Shown here one piece after another: positions 329 through 27,783 of a DNA stretch of 64,000 nucleotides. Under the pieces are notes generated by a model. It did no database searches, had not been told where the DNA came from, and worked only from the letters and a program-made list of their open reading frames with translations. The stretch is from Nemertoderma westbladi (Eukaryota > Animalia > Xenacoelomorpha). The stretch's first letter is position 1; each line of letters begins with the position of its first letter. A program made the translations under genes and the position numbers. The stretch is from the NCBI GenBank assembly GCA_032718475.1, contig JAUCBJ010007147.1, positions 1 to 64,000 on the forward strand, written 5' to 3'.

Positions 329-2614
329 CCGGTATATTTATAATTTAGACAATTTCGGAATATTTTCGTCATTTCCGACGATTTTAGAACTACAGTACTT
401 ATCCAATATTTATCCCACATTATTAACTACAGGTTGCCAGTTCTCATGATGGGAAGGAATTCAATGTATTCGACATAAGTATTCCTCTATTTACCTCAAA
501 AATCCCACCACAGGCTGCCATAAATTCATTTAGCCTCAAACTATGGTCACGCATAATGACACCAGATGATATTATAGGAACAATTATAGAACCCGATTCG
601 ATTGGTTCAACATTTAGAACTGCAGCTCCAGATTTGAAGGTCAATATTCTTAAAGGTTAGTAGGCCTACTTTTTAAAGAGATATATACATACAATCGATG
701 TGTCGGTGCATAGTGAGAAAATGAAGTACCATCTGTAGGCCCATATATACAAATAGTGAAATGGACTACTGTACTTATCTTGTATATGTATATTATTATA
801 CTACAGTATATTGTATAAGTCGCATTGCAGTTAGTCCGATGGAAAGATAACAACATTTGAGGCCTGATCTATCTCGATTCCATCAAAAGTGTAAAATGAT
901 TTCGGAAATAAAATTACTGCCCAAGAAAACAAACCAACATCAATAGCACCACCGTGATTAGACCCAGCAAACTACTATAATGTTGGTTTAATTTATAATA
1001 TAACCCATATAAAGTATAATTATATATTTTACATTTTAGAAATGGTTACGAAGCGATTCAGTCTTAATAATTCACTATTTAGAAATGCGATGTGGCCCAA
1101 ATTAAGGCGATCCATTAACCAGAAGGGAATAGATGCTAAGAGGAAAGAAAAGGGTAGCCGCGATCGGGACCAGGGCGAGAACCATGAACAGTGTTAACAT
1201 CAAATAATTCATTAAAATATGCTACTGTGTGGGCGTTAATATATTATATATCATGTATTTTGTAAACTGCGATACATACTGTAGGCCTTCGTTTCATTTG
1301 CATGCATTTCTACTTAAAAATTTTAAAACGATATTTAGACGGATTAATTACATACAAAATATCCAAAATACAGATATGAACCCCCGGTTCGAGATATGCG
1401 GCTTACTACAGTACGGTATACTGTACACGTTCGTGTGGCCTTCGCGCAGCACAAGACTGTGTATACGTACCAAGTATGGTTTAATCATCAATGATTGACC
1501 GACTTATATCGGTTTTTATCAAAACTCTGAAACTGTCGATACCGAATGACTGACTGTCTGAATTTTTTTTTCTCAAACTTCGGGTTCTTTATAAACTTTT
1601 GACAAACTCCAAACATACCAAGTTTGGTTAAATTTTAACAAGGAATAATGGTACCCCTATTCTAAGGCTTCGCTCACAGCTTGGCACGCCGTCCCACATT
1701 CTAAATATAGTACATTGTTTGCAAATGCTTCTAAAGCCAACATTATATTAGCTTTATCTTTATAAGATTATTTTTATACTACTGTACTTAATATGCCGAC
1801 CCTAACAAATATGGGGGGGGGGGGGGGAACTCGACGCAAAACCCGCCTTGCGAATTAATATCCCGCCTCAATGTTAAATTCTCAATTTAGGGAAAGGAGC
1901 AGGTTACAGTAGCACGTTATTTTAACCAAAACAATAAACTAAACGCAATAGAGCAGGTTACAGTTTTATTATTGAAAGTAATCAGCTGTTACAGTATTTG
2001 CGTCGAATTTCCCCTGGAGAGGGATGAATTTTTATTGCGTCCAGTTCCCATCCCCCCTCCCCCTATCTGGATTTCAGTGGTAAAACTCGATCTTGCATTA
2101 CAAACGACGCTAAAAAAAACTCAACGATGACTTTTAAGAATTTAATCTTGAAGGTCGGCTTGTCAACACATAAAATAAAACAGTATGTTAGCAAAGAAAT
2201 TCAGTTCTATTTATTTTAAATAATTAATTGTTACATCATTTGCCGCTTCCGGGCGATTTGAGGGTTGTATTTTGTGGATATTGTAATTAAATATATACTG
2301 GCTATGATATTATATTGTTAGTCATGTTTACAAAGGAGTGATCATGCATAATAAGTAATTTGATAAATTTGCAACGATCGCGTATGCACATCCCCTAGCG
2401 AACAGCAAAGATCTGGTATATTCATAGTTAATCTGTAATGTTCTTACATGATCAGTGACTCCCTGCAAAGATCTGGGATGTACCTAGAAAATCTGTAAGG
2501 ATCTTAGACGATCAGTGCCTCCCCTGCAAAGATCAGTATCTGAAGTGCCAAGATCTTACAAAGAATGTTAACAAATCTTATCAAGATCTTTTCAGATTTC
2601 GCATGTTGCAAGAC

Positions 2615-2770
2615 TAGGGTGGAGATGTCACCGAGGGCAGTTTCTAAGTCTTCAAAGAAGGATAAGTTGCTTTGACGGTGATATATAGTTCCCAATAGGA
2701 TTGGTTTAGTATGAGGTAGATTTAGATTGCCGAAAATACATTCCAGTTCACTGTTGTGGCAGATTGGAAT
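2615..2770 (-). pseudogene. Degraded AP-endonuclease fragment of a CR1/L2-type LINE
   Basis: Minus-strand translation ELECIFGNLNLPHTKPILLGTIYHRQSNLSFFEDLETAL resembles the LINE APE segment E.I...L.....I..G.IYRPP. No RT nearby. Confidence 0.45.
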
Positions 2771-3789
2771 CTGTTTAAATGAAAGACTTTGCAGTATAGG
2801 CCTAGGAGCCAAGTCCTGAAGTCAGCAAGTAGCCTAACAGCCTAATATAGTAAAACAATGGATTCTGAAGATGAAGTTCAAACGGGTCTTCCAACTAATC
2901 AAACAGAATTTGATAAGATGAATCAGATGATGACGTTCCAATAGGTAAGACTGCAGGACTGTACGGTACCGGAACCGGTATGCGGTACATACACCAGTAC
3001 ACGTACAGCTGTAAGACACTGGACACTGCTGTACTGTGCCTGACTGTGATTGCTGGACTGTCACTCACTCCCCACCCACCACCCCTAGAGGAGACACAAG
3101 TCACAAAGTCAGCCAGTACTCCCAAGAGCAAACCGCTACTGGTACCCTGGTACTGGTGGGCCTATATGGAATACTGACAAAAGGCGCGCCACATGGGTTC
3201 TGGTTAAAAGAAAAGCGCACCAAACATTGCATTCAGTGCATGCCAACCATTCTGCTATTGGATATGAAAATTTGCAATAATTGTAATTAATCATATATCC
3301 TTTTATAATGCAATAGAGGCTACAGTATTTTAACATTAAAATACGAGCGTAGAGAGCAAGGAAATTTTTCGGAAATGTTAACATTAATATTAATACAGTA
3401 CTTAACAGCCTAATACAGTAATATTCAGAGGTCAACCCCGAGGAAATTTTTTTGGAAAATGTTAACATTAATACAAATTCAGTACCGGTACCTAATATTC
3501 AGAGGTCAACCAACTGTTTTTAAATATATGTGAATATGATGTGATAAAATTGAGAGTGTAGCAAGCACGAAAATGTTAACATTTATACAGTTTATACTGA
3601 CGGATTGTTTTTAAATTTAGCTGTGATTAAATTGCGAGCATAGCTATAGCAAGCACGGAAATTCTGCTGAATCATGGTTTTATTCGTTTATATTGCAGTA
3701 CTGGTTTGAACAATTGAAAAACTGTTGACAGCCGCAAGACATTGGATACAGGTGTAGTTTGTTACATTCTGACATTAAATATATAAACT

Positions 3790-3806
3790 TTGTACATTAT
3801 CTTCAG
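3790..3806 (+). promoter_or_regulatory. Probable 3' splice acceptor upstream of the TOP1 ATG, implying a non-coding upstream exon
   Basis: TTGTACATTATCTTCAG|G at the AT-rich to GC-rich transition. An in-frame TAG at 3826 supports ATG 3865 as the start. Confidence 0.45.
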
Positions 3807-3864
3807 GTCAAATCACGCGGCAGCATAGCTGGCTGAACGGGCAGGTTGAGAGGGGGGTCAAGAC

Positions 3865-5130
3865 ATGTCGGACAACGACATTCCGCTGCTACGGACATCC
3901 GCTGGAAAATCAGGACACATTCGGACTCCGGACAACCACTTGGCGGAAAAGCGACGCCATTCCGTCACGGGCGAGGGGTCTAGCCATCACAGTAAACATG
4001 AGAAACACGATAAACATAAATGCGACAAACATAAACACGACAAACATAATAAACACGACAAACATAATAAACACGACAAACATAAAAACAGAGAAGATAA
4101 ACTCAAATACCCGGGGCTTTCGACGCGGGTAAAATCGGAACTGGAAAGCGACTACAACGAAGACGATGACGACTATAAACCGATGAAAAAAACAATTAAA
4201 GTAGAAAAAGTAAAAGACAAAGTAGTAAAGAAAGAGACTAAAGTAAATGGGATACGAGAAAGTAAAAACGAGAAGAGACAGAGCGATGCCAGGGCCACCA
4301 GCTCCCCGCGGAAAAAACCAAAGAGAGAACCAGAGGAAGTGTGGGAGTGGTGGAAGGAAGCCCCCAAAGCGGAGGGGGTTAAATGGAGTTCATTGACCCA
4401 CAGAGGTCCATGGTTCCCCCCGGCCTACAAACCCCTCCCGGCCACCGTTGTCTTTCGTTACGACAGACAGCCACTCTGTCTGTCCACCAATGCCGAGGAG
4501 GTGATGGGTTTCTACGCGAAGATGCTGGACCATGATTACACCGCCAATGACGTCTTCAATAAGAACTTCATGCACGACTGGCGGAAGGTGATGACTCATG
4601 ATGAGCGGAGGAAAATCACCGATATAAATAAGTGCGACTTCCGGGCGGTTCACACATACTTCATGGAGCAGAGTGAGGAGCTCAAAGCCGCGAGCAAAGA
4701 GGAGAAACAGAAGCGTAAAGAGGAGAACGAAGCGATCACTAAGGAGTTTGGGTTCGCCATGCTGGACGGGCATAAGGAGAAGCTCGGGGCCTTCCGGATG
4801 GAGCCCCCCGGGTTGTTCCGGGGGCGGGGCAACCATCCCAAGATGGGGAAACTAAAGAAACGCATACAGCCCGAGGATGTTACCATCAACATCTCGAAGG
4901 GGGCAACCCCCCCGCCCCCCGCGGGGCACCGATGGAAGGAAGTGAAGCACGATGTGTCAGTCACCTGGTTGGCCTGTTGGACGGAGAATGTCCAGGCCAA
5001 CATCAAGTACGTCATGTTTAGCCCTCAGAGCAAGCTGAAAGGCGTGAAAGATATGCAGAAGTATGATAAAGCGAGGGAGCTTATCAAACACGTGGATCAG
5101 ATACGGAAGGCTTACACGGACGACTTCCAG
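3865..5130 (+). CDS. TOP1: DNA topoisomerase IB, coding exon 1 (422 codons)
   Basis: His/Lys/Asp-rich N-terminus (HDKHNK repeats), then core motifs WEWW, KWSSLTHRGP, FYAKML, EPPGLFRGRGNHPKMGKLKKRI, WLACWTEN. Ends AYTDDFQ at a phase-0 donor CAG|GTAGGT (5130/5131). Confidence 0.96.
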
Positions 5131-8100
5131 GTAGGTTCGGGAATGCAGATGACGTGACTTCCAGGTAGGTCCGGGAACACAGACGACTTCCGGGTTGGTT
5201 CGGGAACACAGATGACTTCCAGGTAGGTTTGGGAACACAGGCGACTTCCAGGTAGGTTTGGGAACACAGACGACTTCCAGGTAGGTTTGTGAACACAGGC
5301 GACTTCCAGGTTGGTTCGTGAACACAGACGACTTCCAGGTTGGTTCGAGAACACAGACGACTTCCTGGTAGGTTTGGGAAATGGGAACACAGGCGACTTC
5401 CAGGTAGGTTCGGGAACACAGCCGACTTCCAGGTTGGTTCGGGAACACAGACGACTTCCACGTTGGTTTGGGAACACAGACAACTTCCAGGTTGATTCGG
5501 GAACACAGACGACTTCCAGGTAGGTTTGGGAACACAGGCGACTTCCTGGTAGGTTTGGGAAATGGGAACACAGACGACTTCCAGGTAGGTTCGGGAACAC
5601 ATACGACTTCCATGTAGGTTCGGGAACACAGACGACTTCCAGGTTGGTTTGGGAACACAGACGACTTCCAGGTAGGTTTGGGAAAACAGACGACTTCCGG
5701 GTTGGTTTGGGAACACAGACGACTTCCGGGTTGGTTTGGGAACGCAGGCGACTTCCGGGTTGGTTTGGGAAATGGGAACACAGACGACTTCCAGGTAGGT
5801 TTGGGAACACATACGACTTCCATGTAGGTTCGGGAATACAGACGACTTCCAGGTAGGTTTGGTAACACAGACGACTTCCAGGTAGGTTTGGTAACACAGA
5901 CGACTTCCGGGTTGGTTTGGGAACACAGACGACTTCCAGGTAGGTTTGGGAACACAGATGACTTCCGGGTTGGTTCAGGAACACAGACGACTTCCAGGTG
6001 GGTTTGGAAACACAGACAACTTCCAGGTTGATTCGGGAACACAGACGACATTCCACGTTGGTTTGGGAACACAGACAACTTCCAGGTTGATTCGGGAACA
6101 CAGACGACTTCCAGGTAGGTTTGGGAACACAGACGACTTCCTGGTAGGTTTGGGAAATGGGAACACAGACGACTTCCAGGTAGGTTTGGGAACACATACG
6201 ACTTCCATGTAGGTTCGGGAACACAGACGACTTCCAGGTAGGTTTGGGAACACAGATGACTTCCGGGTTGGTTCGGGAACACAGACGACTTCCAGGTGGG
6301 TTTGGAAACACAGACAACTTCCAGGTTGATTCGGGAACACAGACGACATTCCACGTTGGTTTGGGAACACAGACAACTTCCAGGTTGATTCGGGAACACA
6401 GACGACATTCCACGTTGGTTTGGGAACACAGACAACTTCCAGGTTGATTCGGGAACACAGACGACTTCCAGGTAGGTTTGGGAACACAGACGACTTCCAG
6501 GTAGGTTCGGGAACACAGACAACTTCCAGGTTGATTCGGGAACACAGACGACATTCCACGTTGGTTTGGGAACACAGGCAACTTCCAGGTTGATTCGGGA
6601 ACACAGACGACTTCCTGGTAGGTTTGGGAAATGGGAACACAGACGACTTCCAGGTAGGTTCGGGAACACAGACACTTCCAGGTAGGTTTGGGAACACAGA
6701 CGACTTCCATGTAGGTTCAGGAACATAGATGACTTCCGGGTTGGTTCGGGAACACAGACGACTTCCAGTTTGGTTTGGGAACACAGACGACTTCCAGGTT
6801 GGTTTGGGAACACAGACGACTTCCAGGTAGGTTTGGTAACACAGACGACTTCCGGGTTGGTTTGGGAACGCAGGCGACTTCCATGTAGGTTCGGGAACAT
6901 AGATGACTTCTGGGTTGGTTCGGAAACACAGACGACTTCCAGGTAGGTTTGGGAACACAGACGACTTCCGGGTTGGTTCAGGAACACAGACGACTTCCAG
7001 GTAGGTTTGGTAACACAGACGACTTCCAGGTAGGTTTGGTAACACAGACGACTTCCGGGTTGGTTTGGGAACACAGACAACTTCCATGTAGGTTCGGGAA
7101 CATAGATGACTTCCGGGTTGGTTCGGAAACACAGACGACTTCCAGGTAGGTTTGGGAACTCAGACGACTTCCAGGTAGGTTTGGGAAATGGGAACACAGA
7201 CGACTTCCAGGTAGGTTTGGGAACACATACGACTTCCATGTAGGTTCGGGAACACAGACGACTTCCAGGTAGGTTTGGGAACACAGATGACTTCCGGGTT
7301 GGTTCGGGAACACAGACGACTTCCAGGTGGGTTTGGAAACACAGACAACTTCCAGGTTGATTCGGGAACACAGACGACATTCCACGTTGGTTTGGGAACA
7401 CAGACAACTTCCAGGTTGATTCGGGAACACAGACGACATTCCACGTTGGTTTGGGAACACAGACAACTTCCAGGTTGATTCGGGAACACAGACGACTTCC
7501 AGGTAGGTTTGGGAACACAGACGACTTCCGGGTTGGTTTGGGAACGCAGGCGACTTGCAGGTAGGTTTGGGAATATAAACGACTTCCGGGTTGGTTTGGG
7601 AACACAGACGACTTCCAGGTAGGTTTGGGAACACAGACGACTTCCTGGTAGGTTTGGGAACACAGACGACTTCCAGGTAGGTTCGGGAACACAGACACTT
7701 CCAGGTAGGTTTGGGAACACAGACGACTTCCTGGTAGGTTCGGGAACACAGACGACTTCCATGTAGGTTCGGGAACATAGATGACTTCCGGGTTGGTTCG
7801 GGAACACAGACGACTTCCAGTTTGGTTTGGGAACACAGACGACTTCCAGGTTGGTTTGGGAACACAGACGACTTCCAGGTAGGTTTGGTAACACAGACGA
7901 CTTCCGGGTTGGTTTGGGAACGCAGGCGACTTCCATGTAGGTTCGGGAACATAGATGACTTCTGGGTTGGTTCGGAAACACAGACGACTTCCAGGTAGGT
8001 TTGGGAACACAGACGACTTCCGGGTTGGTTCAGGAACACAGACGACTTCCAGGTAGGTTTGGTAACACAGACGACTTCCAGGTAGGTTTGGTAACACAGA

Positions 8101-11100
8101 CGACTTCCGGGTTGGTTTGGGAACACAGACAACTTCCATGTAGGTTCGGGAACATAGATGACTTCCGGGTTGGTTCGGAAACACAGACGACTTCCAGGTA
8201 GGTTTGGGAACACAGACGACTTCCAGGTAGGTTTGGTAACACAGACGACTTCCGGGTTGGTTTGGGAACACAGACGACTTCCATGTAGGTTCGGGAACAT
8301 AGATGACTTCCGGGTTGGTTCGGAAACACAGACGACTTCCAGGTAGGTTTGGGAACACAGACGACTTCCGGGTTGGTTCAGGAACACAGACGACTTCCGG
8401 GTTGGTTTGGGAACACAGACGACTTCCATGTAGGTTCGGGAACATAGATGACTTCCGGGTTGGTTCGGAAACACAGACGACTTCCATGTAGGTTCGGGAA
8501 CATAGATGACTTCCGGGTTGGTTCGGAAACACAGACGACTTCCAGGTAGGTTTGGGAACACAGACGACTTCCAGGTAGGTTTGGTAACACAGACGACTTC
8601 CGGGTTGGTTTGGGAACACAGACGACTTCCATGTAGGTTCGGGAACATAGATGACTTCCGGGTTGGTTCGGAAACACAGACGACTTCCAGGTAGGTTTGG
8701 GAACACAGACGACTTCCGGGTTGGTTCAGGAACACAGGCGACTTCCAGGTTGGTTTGGGAACACAGACGACTTCCAGGTTGGTTTGGGAACACAGACGAC
8801 TTCCTGGTTGATTCGGGAACACAGACGACTTCCAGGTAGTTTCGGGAACACAGACACTTCCGGGTTGGTTTGGGAACACAGACGACTTCCAGGTAGGTTC
8901 GGGAACACATACGACTTCCATGTAGGTTCGGGAACACAGACGACTTCCAGGTAGGTTCGGGAACACAGACGACTTCCAGGTAGGTTTGGGAACACAGACG
9001 ACTTCCGGGTTGGTTTGGGAACGCAGGCGACTTCCATGTAGGTTCGGGAACACAGACGACTTCCAGGTAGGTTCGGGAACACAGACGACTTCCAGGTAGG
9101 TTTGGGAACACAGACGACTTCCGGGTTGGTTTGGGAACGCAGGCGACTTGCAGGTAGGTTTGGGAATATAAACGACTTCCAGGTTGGTTTGGGAACACAG
9201 ACGACTTCCAGGTAGGTTTGGGAACACGGACGACTTCCTGGTAGGTTTGGGAAATGGGAACACAGACGACTTCCAGGTAGGTTCGGGAACACAGACACTT
9301 CCAGGTAGGTTTGGGAACACAGACGACTTCCATGTAGGTTCAGGAACATAGATGACTTCCGGGTTGGTTCGGGAACACAGACGACTTCCAGTTTGGTTTG
9401 GGAACACAGACGACTTCCAGGTTGGTTTGGGAACACAGACGACTTCCAGGTAGGTTTGGTAACACAGACGACTTCCGGGTTGGTTTGGGAACGCAGGCGA
9501 CTTCCATGTAGGTTCGGGAACATAGATGACTTCTGGGTTGGTTCGGAAACACAGACGATTTCCAGGTAGGTTTGGGAACACAGACGACTTCCGGGTTGGT
9601 TCAGGAACACAGACGACTTCCAGGTAGGTTTGGTAACACAGACGACTTCCAGGTAGGTTTGGTAACACAGACGACTTCCGGGTTGGTTTGGGAACACAGA
9701 CAACTTCCATGTAGGTTCGGGAACATAGATGACTTCCGGGTTGGTTCGGAAACACAGACGACTTCCAGGTAGGTTTGGGAACACAGACGACTTCCAGGTA
9801 GGTTTGGTAACACAGACGACTTCCGGGTTGGTTTGGGAACACAGACGACTTCCATGTAGGTTCGGGAACATAGATGACTTCCGGGTTGGTTCGGAAACAC
9901 AGACGACTTCCAGGTAGGTTTGGGAACACAGACGACTTCCGGGTTGGTTCAGGAACACAGACGACTTCCGGGTTGGTTTGGGAACACAGACGACTTCCAT
10001 GTAGGTTCGGGAACATAGATGACTTCCGGGTTGGTTCGGAAACACAGACGACTTCCATGTAGGTTCGGGAACATAGATGACTTCCGGGTTGGTTCGGAAA
10101 CACAGACGACTTCCAGGTAGGTTTGGGAACACAGACGACTTCCAGGTAGGTTTGGGAACACAGACGACTTCCAGGTAGGTTCGGGAACACAGACGACTTC
10201 CAGGTAGGTTTGGTAACACAGACGACTTCCAGGTAGGTTTGGTAACACAGACGACTTCCGGGTTGGTTTGGGAACACAGACGACATTCCACGTTGGTTTG
10301 GGAACACAGACAACTTCCAGGTTGATTCGGGAACACAGACGACTTCCAGGTAGGTTTGGGAACACAGACGACTTCCTGGTAGGTTTGGGAAATGGGAACA
10401 CAGACGACTTCCAGGTAGGTTTGGGAACACATACGACTTCCATGTAGGTTCGGGAACACAGACGACTTCCAGGTAGGTTTGGGAACACAGATGACTTCCG
10501 GGTTGGTTCGGGAACACAGACGACTTCCAGGTGGGTTTGGAAACACAGACAACTTCCAGGTTGATTCGGGAACACAGACGACATTCCACGTTGGTTTGGG
10601 AACACAGACAACTTCCAGGTTGATTCGGGAACACAGACGACATTCCACGTTGGTTTGGGAACACAGACAACTTCCAGGTTGATTCGGGAACACAGACGAC
10701 TTCCAGGTAGGTTTGGGAACACAGACGACTTCCAGGTAGGTTCGGGAACACAGACAACTTCCAGGTTGATTCGGGAACACAGACGACATTCCACGTTGGT
10801 TTGGGAACACAGGCAACTTCCAGGTTGATTCGGGAACACAGACGACTTCCTGGTAGGTTTGGGAAATGGGAACACAGACGACTTCCAGGTAGGTTCGGGA
10901 ACACAGACACTTCCAGGTAGGTTTGGGAACACAGACGACTTCCATGTAGGTTCAGGAACATAGATGACTTCCGGGTTGGTTCGGGAACACAGACGACTTC
11001 CAGTTTGGTTTGGGAACACAGACGACTTCCAGGTTGGTTTGGGAACACAGACGACTTCCAGGTAGGTTTGGTAACACAGACGACTTCCGGGTTGGTTTGG

Positions 11101-14100
11101 GAACGCAGGCGACTTCCATGTAGGTTCGGGAACATAGATGACTTCTGGGTTGGTTCGGAAACACAGACGACTTCCAGGTAGGTTTGGGAACACAGACGAC
11201 TTCCGGGTTGGTTCAGGAACACAGACGACTTCCAGGTAGGTTTGGTAACACAGACGACTTCCAGGTAGGTTTGGTAACACAGACGACTTCCGGGTTGGTT
11301 TGGGAACACAGACAACTTCCATGTAGGTTCGGGAACATAGATGACTTCCGGGTTGGTTCGGAAACACAGACGACTTCCAGGTAGGTTTGGGAACTCAGAC
11401 GACTTCCAGGTAGGTTTGGGAAATGGGAACACAGACGACTTCCAGGTAGGTTTGGGAACACATACGACTTCCATGTAGGTTCGGGAACACAGACGACTTC
11501 CAGGTAGGTTTGGGAACACAGATGACTTCCGGGTTGGTTCGGGAACACAGACGACTTCCAGGTGGGTTTGGAAACACAGACAACTTCCAGGTTGATTCGG
11601 GAACACAGACGACATTCCACGTTGGTTTGGGAACACAGACAACTTCCAGGTTGATTCGGGAACACAGACGACATTCCACGTTGGTTTGGGAACACAGACA
11701 ACTTCCAGGTTGATTCGGGAACACAGACGACTTCCAGGTAGGTTTGGGAACACAGACGACTTCCAGGTAGGTTCGGGAACACAGACAACTTCCAGGTTGA
11801 TTCGGGAACACAGACGACATTCCACGTTGGTTTGGGAACACAGACAACTTCCAGGTTGATTCGGGAACACAGACGACTTCCTGGTTGATTCGGGAACACA
11901 GACGACTTCCAGGTAGTTTCGGGAACACAGACACTTCCGGGTTGGTTCGGGAACACAGACGACTTCCAGGTTGGTTTGGGAACACAGACGACTTCCAGGT
12001 TGGTTTGGGAACACAGACGACTTCCTGGTTGATTCGGGAACACAGACGACTTCCAGGTAGTTTCGGGAACACAGACACTTCCGGGTTGGTTTGGGAACAC
12101 AGACGACTTCCAGGTAGGTTCGGGAACACATACGACTTCCATGTAGGTTCGGGAACACAGACGACTTCCAGGTAGGTTTGGGAACACAGACGACTTCCAG
12201 GTAGGTTTGGGAACACAGACGACTTCCAGGTAGGTTTGGGAACACAGACGACTTCCAGGTAGGTTTGGGAACACAGACGACTTCCGGGTTGGTTTCGGGA
12301 ACACAGACGACTTCCAGGTAGGTTTGGGAACACAGACGACTTCCAGGTAGGTTTGGGAACACAGACGACTTCCGGGTTGGTTTGGGAACGCAGGCGACTT
12401 GCAGGTAGGTTTGGGAATATAAACGACTTCCGGGTTGGTTTGGGAACACAGACGACTTCCAGGTAGGTTTGGGAACACGGACGACTTCCTGGTAGGTTTG
12501 GGAAATGGGAACACAGACGACTTCCAGGTAGGTTCGGGAACACAGACACTTCCAGGTAGGTTTGGGAACACAGACGACTTCCATGTAGGTTCAGGAACAT
12601 AGATGACTTCCGGGTTGGTTCGGGAACACAGACGACTTCCAGTTTGGTTTGGGAACACAGACGACTTCCAGGTTGGTTTGGGAACACAGACGACTTCCAG
12701 GTAGGTTTGGTAACACAGACGACTTCCGGGTTGGTTTGGGAACGCAGGCGACTTCCATGTAGGTTCGGGAACATAGATGACTTCTGGGTTGGTTCGGAAA
12801 CACAGACGACTTCCAGGTAGGTTTGGGAACACAGACGACTTCCGGGTTGGTTCAGGAACACAGACGACTTCCAGGTAGGTTTGGTAACACAGACGACTTC
12901 CAGGTAGGTTTGGTAACACAGACGACTTCCGGGTTGGTTCGGGAACACAGACGACTTCCAGGTAGGTTTGGAACACAGACGACTTCCAGGTAGGTTTGGT
13001 AACACAGACGACTTCCAGGTAGGTTCGGGAACACAGACGACTTCCAGGTAGGTTCGGGAACACAGACGACTTCCAGGTAGGTTTGGGAACACAGACGACT
13101 TCCGGGTTGGTTTGGGAACGCAGGCGACTTGCAGGTAGGTTTGGGAATATAAACGACTTCCAGGTTGGTTTGGGAACACAGACGACTTCCAGGTAGGTTT
13201 GGGAACACGGACGACTTCCTGGTAGGTTTGGGAAATGGGAACACAGACGACTTCCAGGTAGGTTCGGGAACACAGACACTTCCAGGTAGGTTTGGGAACA
13301 CAGACGACTTCCATGTAGGTTCAGGAACATAGATGACTTCCGGGTTGGTTCGGGAACACAGACGACTTCCAGTTTGGTTTGGGAACACAGACGACTTCCA
13401 GGTTGGTTTGGGAACACAGACGACTTCCAGGTAGGTTTGGTAACACAGACGACTTCCGGGTTGGTTTGGGAACGCAGGCGACTTCCATGTAGGTTCGGGA
13501 ACATAGATGACTTCTGGGTTGGTTCGGAAACACAGACGACTTCCAGGTAGGTTTGGGAACACAGACGACTTCCGGGTTGGTTCAGGAACACAGACGACTT
13601 CCAGGTAGGTTTGGTAACACAGACGACTTCCAGGTAGGTTTGGTAACACAGACGACTTCCGGGTTGGTTTGGGAACACAGACAACTTCCATGTAGGTTCG
13701 GGAACATAGATGACTTCCGGGTTGGTTCGGAAACACAGACGACTTCCAGGTAGGTTTGGGAACACAGACGACTTCCAGGTAGGTTTGGTAACACAGACGA
13801 CTTCCGGGTTGGTTTGGGAACACAGACGACTTCCATGTAGGTTCGGGAACATAGACGACTTCCGGGTTGGTTCGGAAACACAGACGACTTCCAGGTAGGT
13901 TTGGGAACACAGACGACTTCCAGGTTGGTTCGGGAACACAGACGACTTCCGGGTTGGTTTGGGAACACAGACGACTTCCATGTAGGTTCGGGAACATAGA
14001 TGACTTCCGGGTTGGTTCGGAAACACAGACGACTTCCATGTAGGTTCGGGAACATAGATGACTTCCGGGTTGGTTCGGAAACACAGACGACTTCCAGGTA

Positions 14101-17100
14101 GGTTTGGGAACACAGACGACTTCCAGGTAGGTTTGGGAACACAGACGACTTCCGGGTTGGTTTGGGAACACAGACGACTTCCATGTAGGTTCGGGAATAT
14201 AGATGACTTCCGGGTTGGTTCGGGAACACAGACGACTTCCAGGTAGGTTTGGGAACACAGACGACTTCCGGGTTGGTTCAGGAACACAGGCGACTTCCAG
14301 GTTGGTTTGGGAACACAGACGACTTCCAGGTTGGTTTGGGAACACAGACGACTTCCAGGTTGGTTTGGGAACACAGACGACTTCCAGGTAGGTTTGGTAA
14401 CACAGACGACTTCCGGGTTGGTTTGGGAACGCAGGCGACTTCCATGTAGGTTCGGGAACATAGATGACTTCTGGGTTGGTTCGGAAACACAGACGACTTC
14501 CAGGTAGGTTTGGGAACACAGACGACTTCCGGGTTGGTTCAGGAACACAGACGACTTCCAGGTAGGTTTGGTAACACAGACGACTTCCAGGTAGGTTTGG
14601 TAACACAGACGACTTCCGGGTTGGTTTGGGAACACAGACAACTTCCATGTAGGTTCGGGAACATAGATGACTTCCGGGTTGGTTCGGAAACACAGACGAC
14701 TTCCAGGTAGGTTTGGGAACACAGACGACTTCCAGGTAGGTTTGGTAACACAGACGACTTCCGGGTTGGTTTGGGAACACAGACGACTTCCATGTAGGTT
14801 CGGGAACATAGATGACTTCCGGGTTGGTTCGGAAACACAGACGACTTCCAGGTAGGTTTGGGAACACAGACGACTTCCGGGTTGGTTCAGGAACACAGAC
14901 GACTTCCGGGTTGGTTTGGGAACACAGACGACTTCCATGTAGGTTCGGGAACATAGATGACTTCCGGGTTGGTTCGGAAACACAGACGACTTCCATGTAG
15001 GTTCGGGAACATAGATGACTTCCGGGTTGGTTCGGAAACACAGACGACTTCCAGGTAGGTTTGGGAACACAGACGACTTCCAGGTAGGTTTGGTAACACA
15101 GACGACTTCCGGGTTGGTTTGGGAACACAGACGACTTCCATGTAGGTTCGGGAATATAGATGACTTCCGGGTTGGTTCGGAAACACAGACGACTTCCAGG
15201 TAGGTTTGGGAACACATACGACTTCCGGGTTGGTTCAGGAACACAGGCGACTTCCAGGTTGGTTTGGGAACACAGACGACTTCCAGGTTGGTTTGGGAAC
15301 ACAGACGACTTCCTGGTTGATTCGGGAACACAGACGACTTCCAGGTAGTTTCGGGAACACAGACACTTCCGGGTTGGTTTGGGAACACAGACGACTTCCA
15401 GGTAGGTTCGGGAACACATACGACTTCCATGTAGGTTCGGGAACACAGACGACTTCCAGGTAGGTTCGGGAACACAGACGACTTCCAGGTAGGTTTGGGA
15501 ACACAGACGACTTCCGGGTTGGTTTGGGAACGCAGGCGACTTCCATGTAGGTTCGGGAACACAGACGACTTCCAGGTAGGTTCGGGAACACAGACGACTT
15601 CCAGGTAGGTTTGGGAACACAGACGACTTCCGGGTTGGTTTGGGAACGCAGGCGACTTGCAGGTAGGTTTGGGAATATAAACGACTTCCAGGTTGGTTTG
15701 GGAACACAGACGACTTCCAGGTAGGTTTGGGAACACGGACGACTTCCTGGTAGGTTTGGGAAATGGGAACACAGACGACTTCCAGGTAGGTTCGGGAACA
15801 CAGACACTTCCAGGTAGGTTTGGGAACACAGACGACTTCCATGTAGGTTCAGGAACATAGATGACTTCCGGGTTGGTTCGGGAACACAGACGACTTCCAG
15901 TTTGGTTTGGGAACACAGACGACTTCCAGGTTGGTTTGGGAACACAGACGACTTCCAGGTAGGTTTGGTAACACAGACGACTTCCGGGTTGGTTTGGGAA
16001 CGCAGGCGACTTCCATGTAGGTTCGGGAACATAGATGACTTCTGGGTTGGTTCGGAAACACAGACGATTTCCAGGTAGGTTTGGGAACACAGACGACTTC
16101 CGGGTTGGTTCAGGAACACAGACGACTTCCAGGTAGGTTTGGTAACACAGACGACTTCCAGGTAGGTTTGGTAACACAGACGACTTCCGGGTTGGTTTGG
16201 GAACACAGACAACTTCCATGTAGGTTCGGGAACATAGATGACTTCCGGGTTGGTTCGGAAACACAGACGACTTCCAGGTAGGTTTGGGAACACAGACGAC
16301 TTCCAGGTAGGTTTGGTAACACAGACGACTTCCGGGTTGGTTTGGGAACACAGACGACTTCCATGTAGGTTCGGGAACATAGATGACTTCCGGGTTGGTT
16401 CGGAAACACAGACGACTTCCAGGTAGGTTTGGGAACACAGACGACTTCCGGGTTGGTTCAGGAACACAGACGACTTCCGGGTTGGTTTGGGAACACAGAC
16501 GACTTCCATGTAGGTTCGGGAACATAGATGACTTCCGGGTTGGTTCGGAAACACAGACGACTTCCATGTAGGTTCGGGAACATAGATGACTTCCGGGTTG
16601 GTTCGGAAACACAGACGACTTCCAGGTAGGTTTGGGAACACAGACGACTTCCAGGTAGGTTTGGGAACACATACGACTTCCATGTAGGTTCGGGAATACA
16701 GACGACTTCCAGGTAGGTTTGGTAACACAGACGACTTCCAGGTAGGTTTGGTAACACAGACGACTTCCGGGTTGGTTTGGGAACACAGACGACTTCCAGG
16801 TAGGTTTGGGAACACAGATGACTTCCGGGTTGGTTCAGGAACACAGACGACTTCCAGGTGGGTTTGGAAACACAGACAACTTCCAGGTTGATTCGGGAAC
16901 ACAGACGACATTCCACGTTGGTTTGGGAACACAGACAACTTCCAGGTTGATTCGGGAACACAGACGACTTCCAGGTAGGTTTGGGAACACAGACGACTTC
17001 CTGGTAGGTTTGGGAAATGGGAACACAGACGACTTCCAGGTAGGTTTGGGAACACATACGACTTCCATGTAGGTTCGGGAACACAGACGACTTCCAGGTA

Positions 17101-20100
17101 GGTTTGGGAACACAGATGACTTCCGGGTTGGTTCGGGAACACAGACGACTTCCAGGTGGGTTTGGAAACACAGACAACTTCCAGGTTGATTCGGGAACAC
17201 AGACGACATTCCACGTTGGTTTGGGAACACAGACAACTTCCAGGTTGATTCGGGAACACAGACGACATTCCACGTTGGTTTGGGAACACAGACAACTTCC
17301 AGGTTGATTCGGGAACACAGACGACTTCCAGGTAGGTTTGGGAACACAGACGACTTCCAGGTAGGTTCGGGAACACAGACAACTTCCAGGTTGATTCGGG
17401 AACACAGACGACATTCCACGTTGGTTTGGGAACACAGGCAACTTCCAGGTTGATTCGGGAACACAGACGACTTCCTGGTAGGTTTGGGAAATGGGAACAC
17501 AGACGACTTCCAGGTAGGTTCGGGAACACAGACACTTCCAGGTAGGTTTGGGAACACAGACGACTTCCATGTAGGTTCAGGAACATAGATGACTTCCGGG
17601 TTGGTTCGGGAACACAGACGACTTCCAGTTTGGTTTGGGAACACAGACGACTTCCAGGTTGGTTTGGGAACACAGACGACTTCCAGGTAGGTTTGGTAAC
17701 ACAGACGACTTCCGGGTTGGTTTGGGAACGCAGGCGACTTCCATGTAGGTTCGGGAACATAGATGACTTCTGGGTTGGTTCGGAAACACAGACGACTTCC
17801 AGGTAGGTTTGGGAACACAGACGACTTCCGGGTTGGTTCAGGAACACAGACGACTTCCAGGTAGGTTTGGTAACACAGACGACTTCCAGGTAGGTTCGGG
17901 AACACAGACGACTTCCGGGTTGGTTTGGGAACACAGACGACTTCCATGTAGGTTCGGGAACATAGATGACTTCCGGGTTGGTTCGGGAACACAGACGACT
18001 TCCAGTTTGGTTTGGGAACACAGACGACTTCCAGGTTGGTTTGGGAACACAGACGACTTCCAGGTAGGTTTGGTAACACAGACGACTTCCGGGTTGGTTT
18101 GGGAACGCAGGCGACTTCCATGTAGGTTCGGGAACATAGATGACTTCTGGGTTGGTTCGGAAACACAGACGACTTCCAGGTAGGTTTGGGAACACAGACG
18201 ACTTCCGGGTTGGTTCAGGAACACAGACGACTTCCAGGTAGGTTTGGTAACACAGACGACTTCCAGGTAGGTTTGGTAACACAGACGACTTCCGGGTTGG
18301 TTTGGGAACACAGACAACTTCCATGTAGGTTCGGGAACATAGATGACTTCCGGGTTGGTTCGGAAACACAGACGACTTCCAGGTAGGTTTGGGAACTCAG
18401 ACGACTTCCAGGTAGGTTTGGGAAATGGGAACACAGACGACTTCCAGGTAGGTTTGGGAACACATACGACTTCCATGTAGGTTCGGGAACACAGACGACT
18501 TCCAGGTAGGTTTGGGAACACAGATGACTTCCGGGTTGGTTCGGGAACACAGACGACTTCCAGGTGGGTTTGGAAACACAGACAACTTCCAGGTTGATTC
18601 GGGAACACAGACGACATTCCACGTTGGTTTGGGAACACAGACAACTTCCAGGTTGATTCGGGAACACAGACGACATTCCACGTTGGTTTGGGAACACAGA
18701 CAACTTCCAGGTTGATTCGGGAACACAGACGACTTCCAGGTAGGTTTGGGAACACAGACGACTTCCAGGTAGGTTCGGGAACACAGACAACTTCCAGGTT
18801 GATTCGGGAACACAGACGACATTCCACGTTGGTTTGGGAACACAGACAACTTCCAGGTTGATTCGGGAACACAGACGACTTCCTGGTTGATTCGGGAACA
18901 CAGACGACTTCCAGGTAGTTTCGGGAACACAGACACTTCCGGGTTGGTTCGGGAACACAGACGACTTCCAGGTTGGTTTGGGAACACAGACGACTTCCAG
19001 GTTGGTTTGGGAACACAGACGACTTCCTGGTTGATTCGGGAACACAGACGACTTCCAGGTAGTTTCGGGAACACAGACACTTCCGGGTTGGTTTGGGAAC
19101 ACAGACGACTTCCAGGTAGGTTCGGGAACACAGACGACTTCCAGGTAGGTTTGGGAACACAGACGACTTCCAGGTTGGTTTGGGAACACAGACGACTTCC
19201 AGGTAGGTTCGGGAACACAGACGACTTCCAGGTAGGTTTGGGAACACAGACGACTTCCGGGTTGGTTTGGGAACGCAGGCGACTTGCAGGTAGGTTTGGG
19301 AATATAAACGACTTCCGGGTTGGTTTGGGAACACAGACGACTTCCAGGTAGGTTTGGGAACACGGACGACTTCCTGGTAGGTTTGGGAAATGGGAACACA
19401 GACGACTTCCAGGTAGGTTCGGGAACACAGACACTTCCAGGTAGGTTTGGGAACACAGACGACTTCCATGTAGGTTCAGGAACATAGATGACTTCCGGGT
19501 TGGTTCGGGAACACAGACGACTTCCAGTTTGGTTTGGGAACACAGACGACTTCCAGGTTGGTTTGGGAACACAGACGACTTCCAGGTAGGTTTGGTAACA
19601 CAGACGACTTCCGGGTTGGTTTGGGAACGCAGGCGACTTCCATGTAGGTTCGGGAACATAGATGACTTCTGGGTTGGTTCGGAAACACAGACGACTTCCA
19701 GGTAGGTTTGGGAACACAGACGACTTCCGGGTTGGTTCAGGAACACAGACGACTTCCAGGTAGGTTTGGTAACACAGACGACTTCCAGGTAGGTTTGGTA
19801 ACACAGACGACTTCCGGGTTGGTTTGGGAACACAGACAACTTCCATGTAGGTTCGGGAACATAGATGACTTCCGGGTTGGTTCGGAAACACAGACGACTT
19901 CCAGGTAGGTTTGGGAACACAGACGACTTCCAGGTAGGTTTGGTAACACAGACGACTTCCGGGTTGGTTTGGGAACACAGACGACTTCCATGTAGGTTCG
20001 GGAACATAGATGACTTCCGGGTTGGTTCGGAAACACAGACGACTTCCAGGTAGGTTTGGGAACACAGACGACTTCCGGGTTGGTTCAGGAACACAGACGA

Positions 20101-22547
20101 CTTCCGGGTTGGTTTGGGAACACAGACGACTTCCATGTAGGTTCGGGAACATAGATGACTTCCGGGTTGGTTCGGAAACACAGACGACTTCCATGTAGGT
20201 TCGGGAACATAGATGACTTCCGGGTTGGTTCGGAAACACAGACGACTTCCAGGTAGGTTTGGGAACACAGACGACTTCCAGGTAGGTTTGGTAACACAGA
20301 CGACTTCCGGGTTGGTTTGGGAACACAGACGACTTCCATGTAGGTTCGGGAATATAGATGACTTCCGGGTTGGTTCGGAAACACAGACGACTTCCAGGTA
20401 GGTTTGGGAACACAGACGACTTCCGGGTTGGTTCAGGAACACAGGCGACTTCCAGGTTGGTTTGGGAACACAGACGACTTCCAGGTTGGTTTGGGAACAC
20501 AGACGACTTCCTGGTTGATTCGGGAACACAGACGACTTCCAGGTAGTTTCGGGAACACAGACACTTCCGGGTTGGTTTGGGAACACAGACGACTTCCAGG
20601 TAGGTTTGGGAACACATACGACTTCCATGTAGGTTCGGGAACACAGACGACTTCCAGGTAGGTTCGGGAACACAGACGACTTCCAGGTAGGTTTGGGAAC
20701 ACAGACGACTTCCGGGTTGGTTTGGGAACGCAGGCGACTTCCAGGTAGGTTTGGGAATATAAACGACTTCCAGGTTGGTTTGGGAACACAGACGACTTCC
20801 AGGTAGGTTTGGGAACACGGACGACTTCCTGGTAGGTTTGGGAACACAGACGACTTCCAGGTAGGTTTGGGAACACAGACGACTTCCAGGTTGGTTTGGG
20901 AACACAGACGACTTCCATGTAGGTTTGGGAACACAGACGACTTCCGGGTTGGTTCGGGAACACAGACGACTTCCAGGTAGGTTTGGGAACACAGACGACT
21001 TCCATGTAGGTTCAGGAACATAGATGACTTCCGGGTTGGTTCGGGAACACAGACGACTTCCAGTTTGGTTTGGGAACACAGACGACTTCCAGGTTGGTTT
21101 GGGAACACAGACGACTTCCAGGTAGGTTTGGTAACACAGACGACTTCCGGGTTGGTTTGGGAACGCAGGCGACTTCCATGTAGGTTCGGGAACATAGATG
21201 ACTTCTGGGTTGGTTCGGAAACACAGACGACTTCCAGGTAGGTTTGGGAACACAGACGACTTCCGGGTTGGTTCAGGAACACAGACGACTTCCAGGTAGG
21301 TTTGGTAACACAGACGACTTCCAGGTAGGTTTGGTAACACAGACGACTTCCGGGTTGGTTTGGGAACACAGACAACTTCCATGTAGGTTCGGGAACATAG
21401 ATGACTTCCGGGTTGGTTCGGAAACACAGACGACTTCCAGGTAGGTTTGGGAACACAGACGACTTCCAGGTAGGTTTGGTAACACAGACGACTTCCGGGT
21501 TGGTTTGGGAACACAGACGACTTCCATGTAGGTTCGGGAACATAGATGACTTCCGGGTTGGTTCGGAAACACAGACGACTTCCAGGTAGGTTTGGGAACA
21601 CAGACGACTTCCGGGTTGGTTCAGGAACACAGACGACTTCCGGGTTGGTTTGGGAACACAGACGACTTCCATGTAGGTTCGGGAACATAGATGACTTCCG
21701 GGTTGGTTCGGAAACACAGACGACTTCCATGTAGGTTCGGGAACATAGATGACTTCCGGGTTGGTTCGGAAACACAGACGACTTCCAGGTAGGTTTGGGA
21801 ACACAGACGACTTCCAGGTAGGTTTGGTAACACAGACGACTTCCGGGTTGGTTTGGGAACACAGACGACTTCCATGTAGGTTCGGGAATATAGATGACTT
21901 CCGGGTTGGTTCGGAAACACAGACGACTTCCAGGTAGGTTTGGGAACACAGACGACTTCCGGGTTGGTTCAGGAACACAGGCGACTTCCAGGTTGGTTTG
22001 GGAACACAGACAACTTCCAGGTTGGTTTGGGAACACAGACGACTTCCAGGTAGGTTTGGTAACACAGACGACTTCCGGGTTGGTTTGGGAACACAGACGA
22101 CTTCCATGTAGGTTCGGGAACATAGATGACTTCCGGGTTGGTTCGGGAACACAGACGACTTCCAGGTAGGTTTGGGAACACAGACGACTTCCGGGTTGGT
22201 TCGGGAACACAGGCGACTTCCAGGTTGGTTTGGGAACACAGACAACTTCCAGGTTGGTTTGGGAACACAGACGACTTCCAGGTAGGTTTGGGAACACAGA
22301 CGACTTCCGGGTTGGTTTGGGAACACAGGCGACTTCCAGGTTGGTTTGGGAACACAGACAACTTCCAGGTTGGTTTGGGAACACAGACGACTTCCGGGTT
22401 GGTTCAGGAACACAGGCGACTTCCAGGTAGGTTCGGGAACACAGACGACTTCCATGTAGGTTCGGGAACATAGATGACTTCCGGGTTGGTTCGGGAACAC
22501 AGACGACTTCCGGGTTGGTTCGGGAACACAGACGACTTCCAGGTAGG
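5114..22547 (+). repeat. ~17.4-kb satellite, 29-bp unit, ~600 copies, with higher-order structure
   Basis: Consensus ACACAGACGACTTCCAGGTAGGTT(T/C)GGGA. Variants include CCGGGTTGG, CCATGTAGG, CCAGGTTGA, a +6 form (GGGAAATGGGAA) and shortened forms. Copy number is length divided by 29. Confidence 0.98.
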
Positions 22548-23460
22548 CAGTTTACAAAAACAAGCGAAATGGCATGGAATCTATCAATCTGCTTACTGGG
22601 CGGAAAAGCCAACCAACCACCAAGGTTAAGGCTGAATCACCAGCCGATCGCCTCAATGGTTGGAAAGCCCACTTTGAAAAGCTCCTAAATAATGACAGGG
22701 TATTGCCTGATAACTTTATAGAAGTAAAAGTGTCTGAGTCTGTACTCCCAGATATTCCCATTGGCGATATCTCCTTTGCAGAAGTGAAGGCTGCTGCAAA
22801 GAGCATTAAGACCAATCGTGCCAGTGGAGTAGATGGTGTTCCCCCTGAGGTCTTTAAAATACCTGAGTGTTTAAAGCTCATCTATCCCATCATAGTAGAC
22901 ATGTACCGAACATCAAGAGTCCCACAAGAAATGAAAACAAATAAGTTGGTGCCAGTTCCCAAGAAGGGCAACCTAACACTCTATGGTTCTTTTCGGGGAA
23001 TCTCATTGATCTCGATTGCTGCAAAGCTATACAATAGGATTCTATTAAATCGCATCAGGGATCCCATTGAGAGACTGCTCCGTGGAAATCAGAATGGGTT
23101 CCGTAAAGGTCGTGGGACCATGGAGCCCATTTTGGCACTTAGAAGGATAATTGAAGAGTTATCAAAAAAGAAAGACAGGCATCTGGCTGTTATCTTTGTT
23201 GACTTCTTCAAGGCCTTTGATTCAGTCTCTCGCTCACGTATGTTCAGCATACTTTCATTATATGGGATTCCTGATGAAATTATTGCAGCAATCAGATCAG
23301 TATATGATGGTTCGACAACATTTGTGTCTACTGTTGACGGTGACACAGAACCATTTGAAGTGTTATGGGGCGTCCTCCAAGGAGACACACTTGCACCATT
23401 CTTGTTCATTATTGTGGTTGACTATGTTCTACGCATGTCCGTAGATCATTATAATGATAC
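22548..23460 (+). mobile_element. RTE-like non-LTR retrotransposon, N-terminal half of the RT region
   Basis: RASGVDGVPPE, VPKKGNL, FRGISL, QNGFRKGR, FVDFFKAFDSV, GVLQGDTLAPFLF. Breaks before the YADD motif. Confidence 0.9.
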
Positions 23461-24010
23461 TACTAGGATCGGCATGCTGCATTGCAGCTGCATTTTTAAG
23501 AATGCTGTGCCGGCTTGTCAACAAAATTGCACCGCCACAACTCCCTATCACCCATGACATTTGCTAGATCATCCGCATCTTTAAGGCCAGTGTCCTTTAA
23601 GATGCGTCTCAAGAAAGTCATGGGCTGTCCACCATGCTTATTCACTCCATGAGGCTGCCAAAGTACAAGATTATGCACTGGCTGGTCCTCACGGCAAAAG
23701 CAATGTCCTGCAAAGCGGAGGCGATTTTGTTCTAGTGTCAAGCTTGGGGGAACCAATGAGACACCTCCAATGTTATATAGTGTCTGGTTGGAGATGTGTG
23801 CATTGTACTTGACACAATGTACCCGGCGTAGCATTCTTGTGAATGTGCCATCCAGAGATTTGGTGTCCTCAGCAGTTAGAGCCCAGCATGGACTCCCATA
23901 GAGGAGTACTGGAACTACTGCTGCTCTAAATAATCGGACCTTAAGTTTCCGATTAATTCTCGGTGACTTCCAAATCCTGGAAAGCCTATTCAAGGCTGCC
24001 CATGCAGAAC
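23458..24010 (-). mobile_element. RTE-like LINE 3' segment, inverted relative to the adjacent RT fragment
   Basis: Minus strand RLSRIWKS..LKVRLFRAAVVPVLLYGSPCWALT..RLRFAGHC..MGDRELWR, then a short TAGTAGTA tail. Homologous to the C-terminus of the LINE at 59171-60050. Confidence 0.85.
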
Positions 24011-24659
24011 TACCTAAGAATACTAATTAGTAAATATTTACATAGTAGGCCTATAAAGTGTAAAGTGACAGAATACAGGAATATGGAATATTGCACGGCT
24101 CTAATGCTGTAATGACAGAATAAAGTATACTCGATGACATTGCATTAAATATTAACTATATATATATTAACTATATAACCCCGTATGTACATCAATCTTG
24201 TAACCCCCCCCCCCCCCCCCCCCCCCCCCCTACACCACCTACCCTACTAACCTAACCCGTCCCCTAATGCCGAACTGCTGCACTAATGCCGGTACTGCAG
24301 TACAGTAAGAGTGCCGATTCCCATCCCATAAATTCCCCACCACCTATACCCGCCGACATACCGTCGCTACTGACTCCTACACCTCTGCCCAAATCCCCGC
24401 GCCGACGACCCCAATCTAGCCCAGTTCAGGCCTGATCGTGCAGTAGTCCGACTGACGACACAGAACACAGAAACAAACCTGTCTACCAACCCCCTCCACC
24501 ATCACGATTCATAAGCCAGTACTGCTGTACCGGTATGTCACCCCCAGACTGCCCCCCCCCCCCGCACAACAAACACCCACCTGCCTATGCGTATGGCCGT
24601 CCACACAAAAAATCCACACGCAATCCGGTTGCGTCCGTTCACACGTTCAGGTAGAGATC

Positions 24660-26892: not shown

Positions 26893-27783
26893 TCCAAGGA
26901 GATGGCTACCCGACAGCGAGCAGTGGCGCTTTATTTTATAGAAAAACTGGCGCTGCGTGCGGGAAACGAGAAGGACAAAGACCAAGCCGACACTGTCGGC
27001 TGCTGCAGTCTGCGTGTCGAACACATTAAACTGGTGGAAGAAGCGGATAAGTACATTGTAGAGTTCGACTTCCTCGGTAAGGATTCCATCCGATACCAGA
27101 ATTCCGTTGTTATCGAGAAACGCGTCTACAAGAACCTCAAACGGTTCATAGATGGTAAGAAAGGAAGTGACGAATTGTTCGACCAGCTGGATACAAGAGG
27201 ACTCAACAAGTACCTGAACCAGCTGATGGAGGGCCTCAGTGCGAAAGTGTTCCGAACCTTCAATGCTTCGATCACTTTGCAGGATCAGCTGGATAAACTT
27301 ACCGATCCCGAGGACACCATCCATGCCAAGATGTTGGCCTACAATCGCGCAAACAAGGAGGTTGCCATACTGTGCAACCATCAACGCGCCATTCCTAAAA
27401 CATTCGATAAGTCTATGGAGAACCTAGAAAATAAGATTAAGGAAAGGGAGACTGTGCTGGATGCGTTAAAGGCTGAATTCAAGAAGGCCAAGGTCGACTG
27501 TCAGAGAGCCGCAACCGCGTCAAATACCCTGCAAAAAGATAAGGCTAAGAAAAAGTACGAGTTGGCTGCTGAGCGGTTGGACAAGCTACGGTTGGAGCAA
27601 ACAGCCAAGGACGAGAACAAAACAGTCGCGTTGGGAACCAGCAAACTCAACTATCTTGACCCCCGTATAAGCGCCGCCTGGTCCAAGAAGCACGTGGTAC
27701 CCATCGAGAAAGTCTATAACAAAACCCAGCGCCAAAAGTTCCAATGGGCCATCGACATGGCCGACGAGACTTTTGTATTCTAG
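26893..27783 (+). CDS. TOP1: DNA topoisomerase IB, coding exon 2 (296 aa plus stop)
   Basis: KLALRAGNEK, DTVGCCSLRVEH, FDFLGKDSI, AKVFRTFNAS, ILCNHQR and GTSKLNYLDPRI. All five catalytic residues (R, K, R, H, Y) are present. Stop is at the expected position. Confidence 0.97.
   Translation, partial: SKEMATRQRAVALYFIEKLALRAGNEKDKDQADTVGCCSLRVEHIKLVEEADKYIVEFDFLGKDSIRYQNSVVIEKRVYKNLKRFIDGKKGSDELFDQLDTRGLNKYLNQLMEGLSAKVFRTFNASITLQDQLDKLTDPEDTIHAKMLAYNRANKEVAILCNHQRAIPKTFDKSMENLENKIKERETVLDALKAEFKKAKVDCQRAATASNTLQKDKAKKKYELAAERLDKLRLEQTAKDENKTVALGTSKLNYLDPRISAAWSKKHVVPIEKVYNKTQRQKFQWAIDMADETFVF

Follow-up and report, generated by a model that had tools for sequence, protein, structure and literature searches.

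The first monomer of the 37-bp variable number tandem repeat (VNTR) in intron 7 of the human F7 gene lies across the exon-intron boundary, and the splice donor is reiterated within the intron (Borensztajn et al. 2006, PMC1557585). Minigenes carrying this repeat use the most upstream functional donor regardless of the number of monomers, up to 12, and do so also against stronger sites placed downstream (PMC1557585). The same paper attributes this architecture, with 10 to 26 copies, to minisatellites of 6-16 (IFI6), CBS intron 13, LMNB2 and PDGF. In ABCA7, a 25-bp VNTR of intron 18 holds a donor within its unit and spans 298 to 10,678 bp, or about 12 to 427 units (PMC5954066, PMC13747324). The "mirage" repeats of the amphioxus Adh3 and globin genes are tandem copies of exon-intron boundaries, for which no harm to splicing is reported (PMC3087553). 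At the far end of the size range, the Drosophila Y-linked genes kl-3 and kl-5 have gigantic, satellite-filled introns on the megabase scale, handled by a dedicated germline programme (PMC6508621). Here we describe a minisatellite of this general kind in an intron of the topoisomerase I gene (TOP1) of Nemertoderma westbladi. The locus lies in a stretch of 64,000 nucleotides (assembly GCA_032718475.1, contig JAUCBJ010007147.1, positions 1 to 64,000 of the forward strand), hereafter the window. The array comprises 597 copies of a segment spanning an exon end and its 5′ splice site, and it most likely expanded neutrally in a decaying copy of the gene.

A TOP1 exon end reiterated in its intron

A search with Pfam profiles identified the Topoisom_I_N, Topoisom_I and Topo_C_assoc domains of TOP1 on the forward strand, with intact catalytic motifs; the residues concerned are those that we take to form the TOP1 catalytic pentad. 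An open reading frame (ORF) running from the ATG at 3865 to position 5130 covers Topoisom_I_N and positions 1-34 of the Topoisom_I profile, and the ORF ending at 27783 picks up the profile at position 34 and also contains Topo_C_assoc. On both sides, alignments with human TOP1 chains reach the junction without a gap, and joining 5130 to 26893 yields the colinear reading YTDDFQ|SKEM. These alignments therefore define a phase-0 GT..AG intron of 21,762 bp at 5131-26892, flanked by the exon at 3807-5130, which holds the ATG, Topoisom_I_N and the start of Topoisom_I, and by the last exon at 26893-27783, which holds the rest of Topoisom_I, Topo_C_assoc and a TAG stop codon (all on the forward strand). 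The closest of the 120 homologues listed are about 60-65% identical, with no close relative among them, and a tree retaining 104 of 121 rows placed the protein among animal sequences on a long branch of unresolved position. Seventeen TOP1 loci from metagenome_contigs were 32-64% identical; all 12 of those read at the junction were uninterrupted there, and as most of these apparently represent transcripts they are no guide to the age of the intron.

Tandem Repeats Finder reported a 29-bp repeat at 5114-22544 with 596.7 copies and 85% matches. Wraparound alignment and decomposition into units resolved the array (5114-22547, forward strand, about 17.4 kb) into 597 units of 63 variants, arranged in mosaic higher-order blocks. 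The estimate of some 600 copies made in a previous reading of the sequence alone was thus accurate. That reading had the intron filled by the array; the array is present, but it makes up 80% of the intron, the remainder consisting of LINE-like (long interspersed nuclear element) and Penelope-like remnants and unique DNA. As also proposed there, the coding end is itself the first copy: copy 1 (5114-5142) consists of the last 17 nt of the exon and the first 12 nt of the intron, with the junction at 5130/5131. The array consensus departs from copy 1 by two changes, G>A at unit position 5 and C>T at unit position 25, both of them CpG transitions. The former is present in 589 of 595 copies and the latter in 334; divergence from copy 1 amounts to 3.4 of 29 positions.

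Copy 1 encodes YTDDFQ, at a place where distant homologues read YQDDWK, YKADFK and similar, a conserved Y..DF/W motif. Since the first copy encodes a conserved stretch and the consensus departs from it by CpG transitions, the satellite derives from the exon end and not the reverse. The sequence CAGGTAGGT occurs 206 times inside the array and not once in the remainder of the window on either strand, and the 29-bp unit had no match outside the array at up to 6 edits on both strands of the 64-kb window. A 44-nt array pattern had no exact match in metagenome_contigs. Intron gain through tandem duplication of an exonic AGGT was considered and rejected: the unit runs on into GTAGGT, and the next exon starts with TCCAAG behind a separate, pyrimidine-rich acceptor.

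Blocks of units are nested within the array and are identical over up to 50 units (1,476 bp), with point differences between the block copies. Twelve of the 24 units that occur only once sit within the first 22 copies. This is the pattern of ordinary minisatellite turnover, that is, concerted evolution with divergent units at the edge.

Splice donors and two types of TOP1

The donor motif CAG|GTAGG is intact at 207 of the 597 unit junctions and the GT itself is kept at 586, so hundreds of copies do retain a donor, as had been anticipated, even though about 65% carry a weakened one. The commonest weakened junctions are CGG|GTTGG and CAT|GTAGG. Intact donors are spread evenly along the array, at 15-30 per 60 units. 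When each of the 597 donors was joined in turn to 26893, the one at 5130 alone gave a product longer than 600 aa (718 aa), in agreement with the earlier proposal that only the first donor yields a colinear TOP1. Read-through from the exon into the intron meets an in-frame TGA at 5155, inside copy 2.

Selection on the downstream donors was assessed on a spanning tree of 58 unit variants with 66 changes. Donor positions had 1.67 changes per site (15 over 9 sites), other non-CpG positions 2.07 (14 sites) and CpG positions 3.67 (6 sites); on these small counts, no selection either keeping or purging the downstream donors was detected in the tree. Juxtaposed AG|GT, as ratchet points of recursive splicing require, is kept in 296 of 596 units. 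Such points are also expected to have a strong polypyrimidine tract before the AG. Pyrimidines make up 45% of the positions preceding the AG of one common unit type, versus 64% and 73% at two real TOP1 acceptors; the array units are poor acceptors, and the pyrimidine tract is weak, just as the sequence-only reading had remarked. That reading had gone on to suggest that the array might act as a sink for U1 small nuclear RNA, as a splicing delay or as a series of recursive ratchet points. The rates at donor positions lend support to none of these, nor does the composition of the acceptors to the last.

Evidence on splicing came from sequencing runs available as short-read contigs. None of the six runs is recorded as RNA; four of them (X1 to X4) were compared with positions 2600-5176. 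X1 to X3 behave as DNA. X4, which is listed as "DNA?", was taken as RNA purely from its behaviour: depth is high on exons only, and a contig joins 3282 to 3807 across a GT..AG intron. According to the X4 contigs, the exon at 3807-5130 is preceded by introns whose last position is 3806, so it is not the first exon that it had been called. One X4 contig of 2,178 nt leaves the window at 5130, and its onward letters are those from 26893 onward, which places the same intron as the protein alignments. Its unaligned 1,107 nt would end at 27999, suggesting that the contig continues along the last exon and the 3′ untranslated region. Position 27999 is also the start of a second minisatellite (27999-28366, 16 copies of 23 bp), about 215 nt past the TOP1 stop. 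X4 depth in the last bin of the compared region, 667.2, equals exactly 37/83 of the 1496.8 of the exon contig; the share of this contig explains it fully, and hence there is no X4 contig on the array.

The spliced 5130-26893 contig does not carry the letters of the window. TOP1 occurs in two types about 4% apart, the window representing one (type A) and the spliced contig the other (type B), with 44 differing letters in 1,074. The DNA runs X2 and X3, from two samples and two studies, hold both types at comparable depth, and X4 holds both as well. The idea that the first of the near-identical donors is chosen is accordingly borne out to the extent that 5130 is the one donor seen joined to 26893 in the RNA-like run, but in a contig with type B letters. 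That type A transcripts, too, are spliced at the first donor is what we infer from the transcription of A together with the absence of array contigs from X4.

The two types differ at their 5′ ends. In X4, the 5′ contig of A (contig 26) matches the window without a difference and has a first exon at 2996-3282 (forward strand), an alternative 5′ exon spliced GT..AG to 3807; its depth is 107.9, versus 1194.5 for B, or about 1/11. The first exon of type B (contig 25) consists of 2795-2944 plus 239 nt that did not align to the stretch, 30 letters of which were looked for in the window and not found. Relative to the window, type B has two single extra bases, near 2914 and near 3849. Its frame would start at the ATG at 2858, 49 codons further upstream, and run through a DDDVPI motif, similar to one in 29 of 120 homologues. 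The corresponding coding portion lies at 2858-2944 (forward strand) and ends in the donor ATAG/GTAAGA used by type B; in the window copy, one base short near 2914, the frame from 2858 meets a stop at 2942-2944. Homology between A and B ends at 2795. An ORF resembling a piece of LINE endonuclease by eye, with no support from Pfam or tblastn, is located at 2504-2821 on the reverse strand, just upstream of that point.

Of the 44 letters at which the spliced contig (contig 30) differs from the window, 31 were examined codon by codon; these affect 29 codons and change the residue in 17. At these 17 positions the 120 homologues favour B 12 times and A four times, with one tie, and five of the A residues are found in none of them. 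In the region 4279-4683 the proportion of synonymous differences (pS) is 0.167 and that of nonsynonymous differences (pN) 0.050, a ratio of 0.30. Sixteen of the 30 A/B differences in this region are CpG losses in A, with none in the reverse direction (enrichment p 2e-5), and the ratio for the CpG class is 0.84. Across all aligned X4 contigs, change on the window side is strongly A/T-ward: 50 places have A/T in the window and G/C in the run, and 5 the opposite. Together with the coexistence of the two types, this bias may point to a duplication of recent date or to a region without recombination.

Type A is apparently the derived, fast-changing and minor type of TOP1. Nevertheless, it is not a dead pseudogene, because its 718-aa ORF is open, its catalytic motifs are intact and its 5′ part is transcribed. 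The sequence-only reading had reckoned with a silent paralogue; the window copy is indeed the minor and apparently decaying type, yet silence does not describe a copy whose 5′ part is transcribed and whose ORF is intact.

How the array may have grown

Taken together, the data are best explained, and we think probably so, by a junction minisatellite that grew neutrally in a decaying TOP1 duplicate under relaxed selection while the first donor continued to be used. A 29-bp piece across the exon end and 5′ splice site would have been amplified to 597 intronic copies through slippage and unequal exchange. By analogy with the F7 minigenes, the spliceosome would proceed in the 5′-to-3′ direction and commit to the donor that it meets first after the exon, and any leak to a later donor would produce a premature stop. 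Relaxed selection on the minor type would have allowed the growth to 17 kb. In this account A would be a duplicate rather than a sheltered allele, and the CpG losses would presumably be caused by methylation.

Several points weigh against this proposal. The window ORF shows no stop over 718 aa and keeps all five catalytic motifs, the 5′ part of A is transcribed and spliced, and the ratio of 0.30 indicates that some constraint remains, though part of it may lie on the branch of B. The codon comparison left 13 of the 44 differences unseen. For the relative depth of A and B there is a single run, contig-only and listed as "DNA?"; contig depth is a poor measure of expression, and A may be rare within a pooled sample. 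Assembled contigs drop rare isoforms, which limits what the lack of array-entering X4 contigs can say. In addition, X2 and X3 contigs follow the window 13 nt into the intron and end after a further 4 and 2 bases, respectively, that no longer match it; such ends, as on entry into a repeat, are a weak hint that type B may carry the array too, in which case relaxed selection on A would not have been needed to seed it. Finally, the experiments on first-donor choice went no further than 12 monomers and used mammalian cells (PMC1557585), and splicing in 6-16 and CBS (PMC1557585) and in ABCA7 (PMC5954066) leaks one or two donors further down.

The order of cause and effect could be the reverse. It is conceivable, though unlikely, that the array of some 600 copies silenced its own host gene: at kilobase size it would have drawn DNA methylation or heterochromatin, lowered output about tenfold, raised CpG mutation in the adjoining exon and so triggered the decay. 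The 16 CpG losses against none in the exon adjoining the array are consistent with this, as are the same CpG decay within the array, the low depth of A in X4 and the drop in ABCA7 expression with increasing VNTR length (PMC5954066). However, A is without the sequence that B has upstream of 2795 and has suffered two 1-nt losses 1.3-2.2 kb upstream, either of which could by itself explain a low output; the downstream region is dense in retrotransposons; B may share the array; and the order of events is indistinct, the array divergence of 3.4 of 29 being of similar order to the pS of 0.167 between A and B. A further, rather improbable alternative retains splicing as proposed above and takes A and B as haplotypes of one locus in permanent heterozygosity, be it in a sex-linked pair, an inversion or an asexual lineage. 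Type A would then be non-recombining and degenerating, and the array a symptom. Both types being seen in all three samples, the shared and homologous introns, the retrotransposon-rich surroundings and the A/T-ward bias of 50 to 5, which would fit a loss of GC-biased gene conversion, speak for such an arrangement. Against it, homology stops at 2795 in DNA and RNA contigs alike, as at the breakpoint of a duplication. Depth does not separate paralogues from alleles, because the A:B ratio differs between runs of the same place and sample, from 2.5 in X1 (31.8:12.5) to 0.9 in X3 (26.5:29.8).

Other explanations give the array a role of its own or deny its length. Recursive, self-correcting removal would proceed by splicing the first donor to any unit AG, which rebuilds the same donor, and a splice from a later donor to the last exon would leave a unit AG in front of that exon, available for a second cut. 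The AG|GT kept in about half of the units fits this scheme, as does TTGAT, a word resembling a branch point, which occurs 41 times within the array; on the other side stand the weak pyrimidine tract, the second AG that most units have 11 nt further upstream, the lack of conservation of the motif and the lack of any array-holding contig in X4. An intron of 21.8 kb is, moreover, hardly in need of recursive splicing, and we consider this scheme very unlikely. It is scarcely credible that the array is a selected regulator, acting as a U1 sink or tuning TOP1 through a delay of transcription or splicing. Each nascent transcript would display 207 strong donor copies, yet about 65% of the donors have degraded at the background rate and the array-bearing copy belongs to the minor type. 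The roughly 200 sites that a rare nascent RNA would offer are a small number compared with the U1 present in the cell, and since U1 bases past about position 11 lie within a helix, the "extended" match invoked in the sequence-only reading adds little. We would give equally little credence to the length being an artefact of assembly. Identical blocks of up to 1,476 bp do recur, and reads check the start of the array and neither its full length nor its 3′ end. Conversely, the window is free of N, the 63 variants occur in nested blocks with point differences, and contigs with the array start were found in all three DNA runs, X1 spanning 5114-5176 with 0 differences.

Neighbouring elements and comparison with known systems

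The last copy of the array adjoins a 5′-truncated piece of a LINE reverse transcriptase (22547-23557, forward strand; RVT_1, E 2.9e-20), presumably RTE-like judging from its motifs. It is followed by the inverted 3′ part of a similar element (23496-24026, reverse strand), recognized by a weak DUF6451 match and by tblastn with the LINE ORF at 59171, which matched 23279-23443 on the forward and 23622-24011 on the reverse strand. This LINE (22547-24026), with its 3′ part inverted, may have set a boundary to the array or split it. Further into the intron, a reverse-transcriptase-like ORF at 25065-26258 (reverse strand) had no Pfam match at E 1; we assume from its motifs that it is Penelope-like.

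Beyond TOP1, the segment 29000-48600 (forward strand) holds two related copies of a BEL/Pao-type long terminal repeat (LTR) retrotransposon (Peptidase_A17, DUF1759, DUF5641, integrase) with 39- and 60-bp coding repeats and, behind these, AGTTAG-rich tandem repeats of 32 and 47 bp. An ORF of 855 aa at 49758-52325 (forward strand), with related pieces at 36089-36676, 38254-39466 and 53535-55038, lies among the LTR elements and had no Pfam match at E 1; by eye we take its motifs to recall a 3′-5′ exonuclease and a Cys/His-rich knuckle region. More LINE reverse transcriptase ORFs (RVT_1) are found at 59171-63221 (forward strand). At the other end of the window, 427-657 and about 1040-1195 (forward strand), which have GT..AG-like ends, are probably the last exons of a gene lying upstream; the first of them has no Pfam match.

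The sequence-only reading had overlooked that the architecture of the locus is a known one. The minisatellites of F7, CBS, 6-16, LMNB2, PDGF and ABCA7 and the amphioxus mirages had already been described, and the array is a long case of this known kind, the exon-intron boundary minisatellite of the F7 type and of the mirages. As in F7, the first monomer spans the junction and donors follow head to tail. The F7 repeat differs in having 5-9 copies, 4 exonic nt and identical donors, versus 597 copies, 17 exonic nt and about 65% weakened donors here. In 6-16 and CBS the next two donors are also used (PMC1557585). The nearest counterpart in size is ABCA7, where the donor likewise lies inside a unit present in hundreds of copies and use of the next donor likewise causes a frameshift. 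Its unit, however, begins at the GT and not within the exon, and it concerns a single locus of essential type with measured effects on expression, whereas the present array has about 1.4 times more units and resides in the minor of two gene types. The amphioxus mirages share with it the invertebrate host, concerted evolution and divergent edges (PMC3087553); the globin repeats are 3-6 copies of 150-160 bp and, among the mirages, either boundary may be copied (PMC3087553). With kl-3 and kl-5 the locus has in common that tandem repeats make up most of the intron. The TOP1 intron measures 21,762 bp rather than megabases, and nothing in the accessible account suggests that the satellites of those genes originated from a splice site (PMC6508621).

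Size alone sets the TOP1 array apart, its 597 units and 17.4 kb comparing with about 427 units for the longest published allele that we found, in ABCA7; no larger exon-intron boundary minisatellite turned up in the literature searched, which consisted mostly of open-access papers. What is new here is the coexistence of two types of TOP1 about 4% apart. So near-identical a pair provides a built-in control for whether arrays cause gene decay or follow it, and if the array did silence its host, A and B would form a natural experiment on the reach of the first donor and on the death of a gene caused by a satellite in its own intron. If transcripts of type A are indeed spliced at the first donor, the choice of that donor survives about 200 identical competitors, well beyond the 12 monomers of F7.

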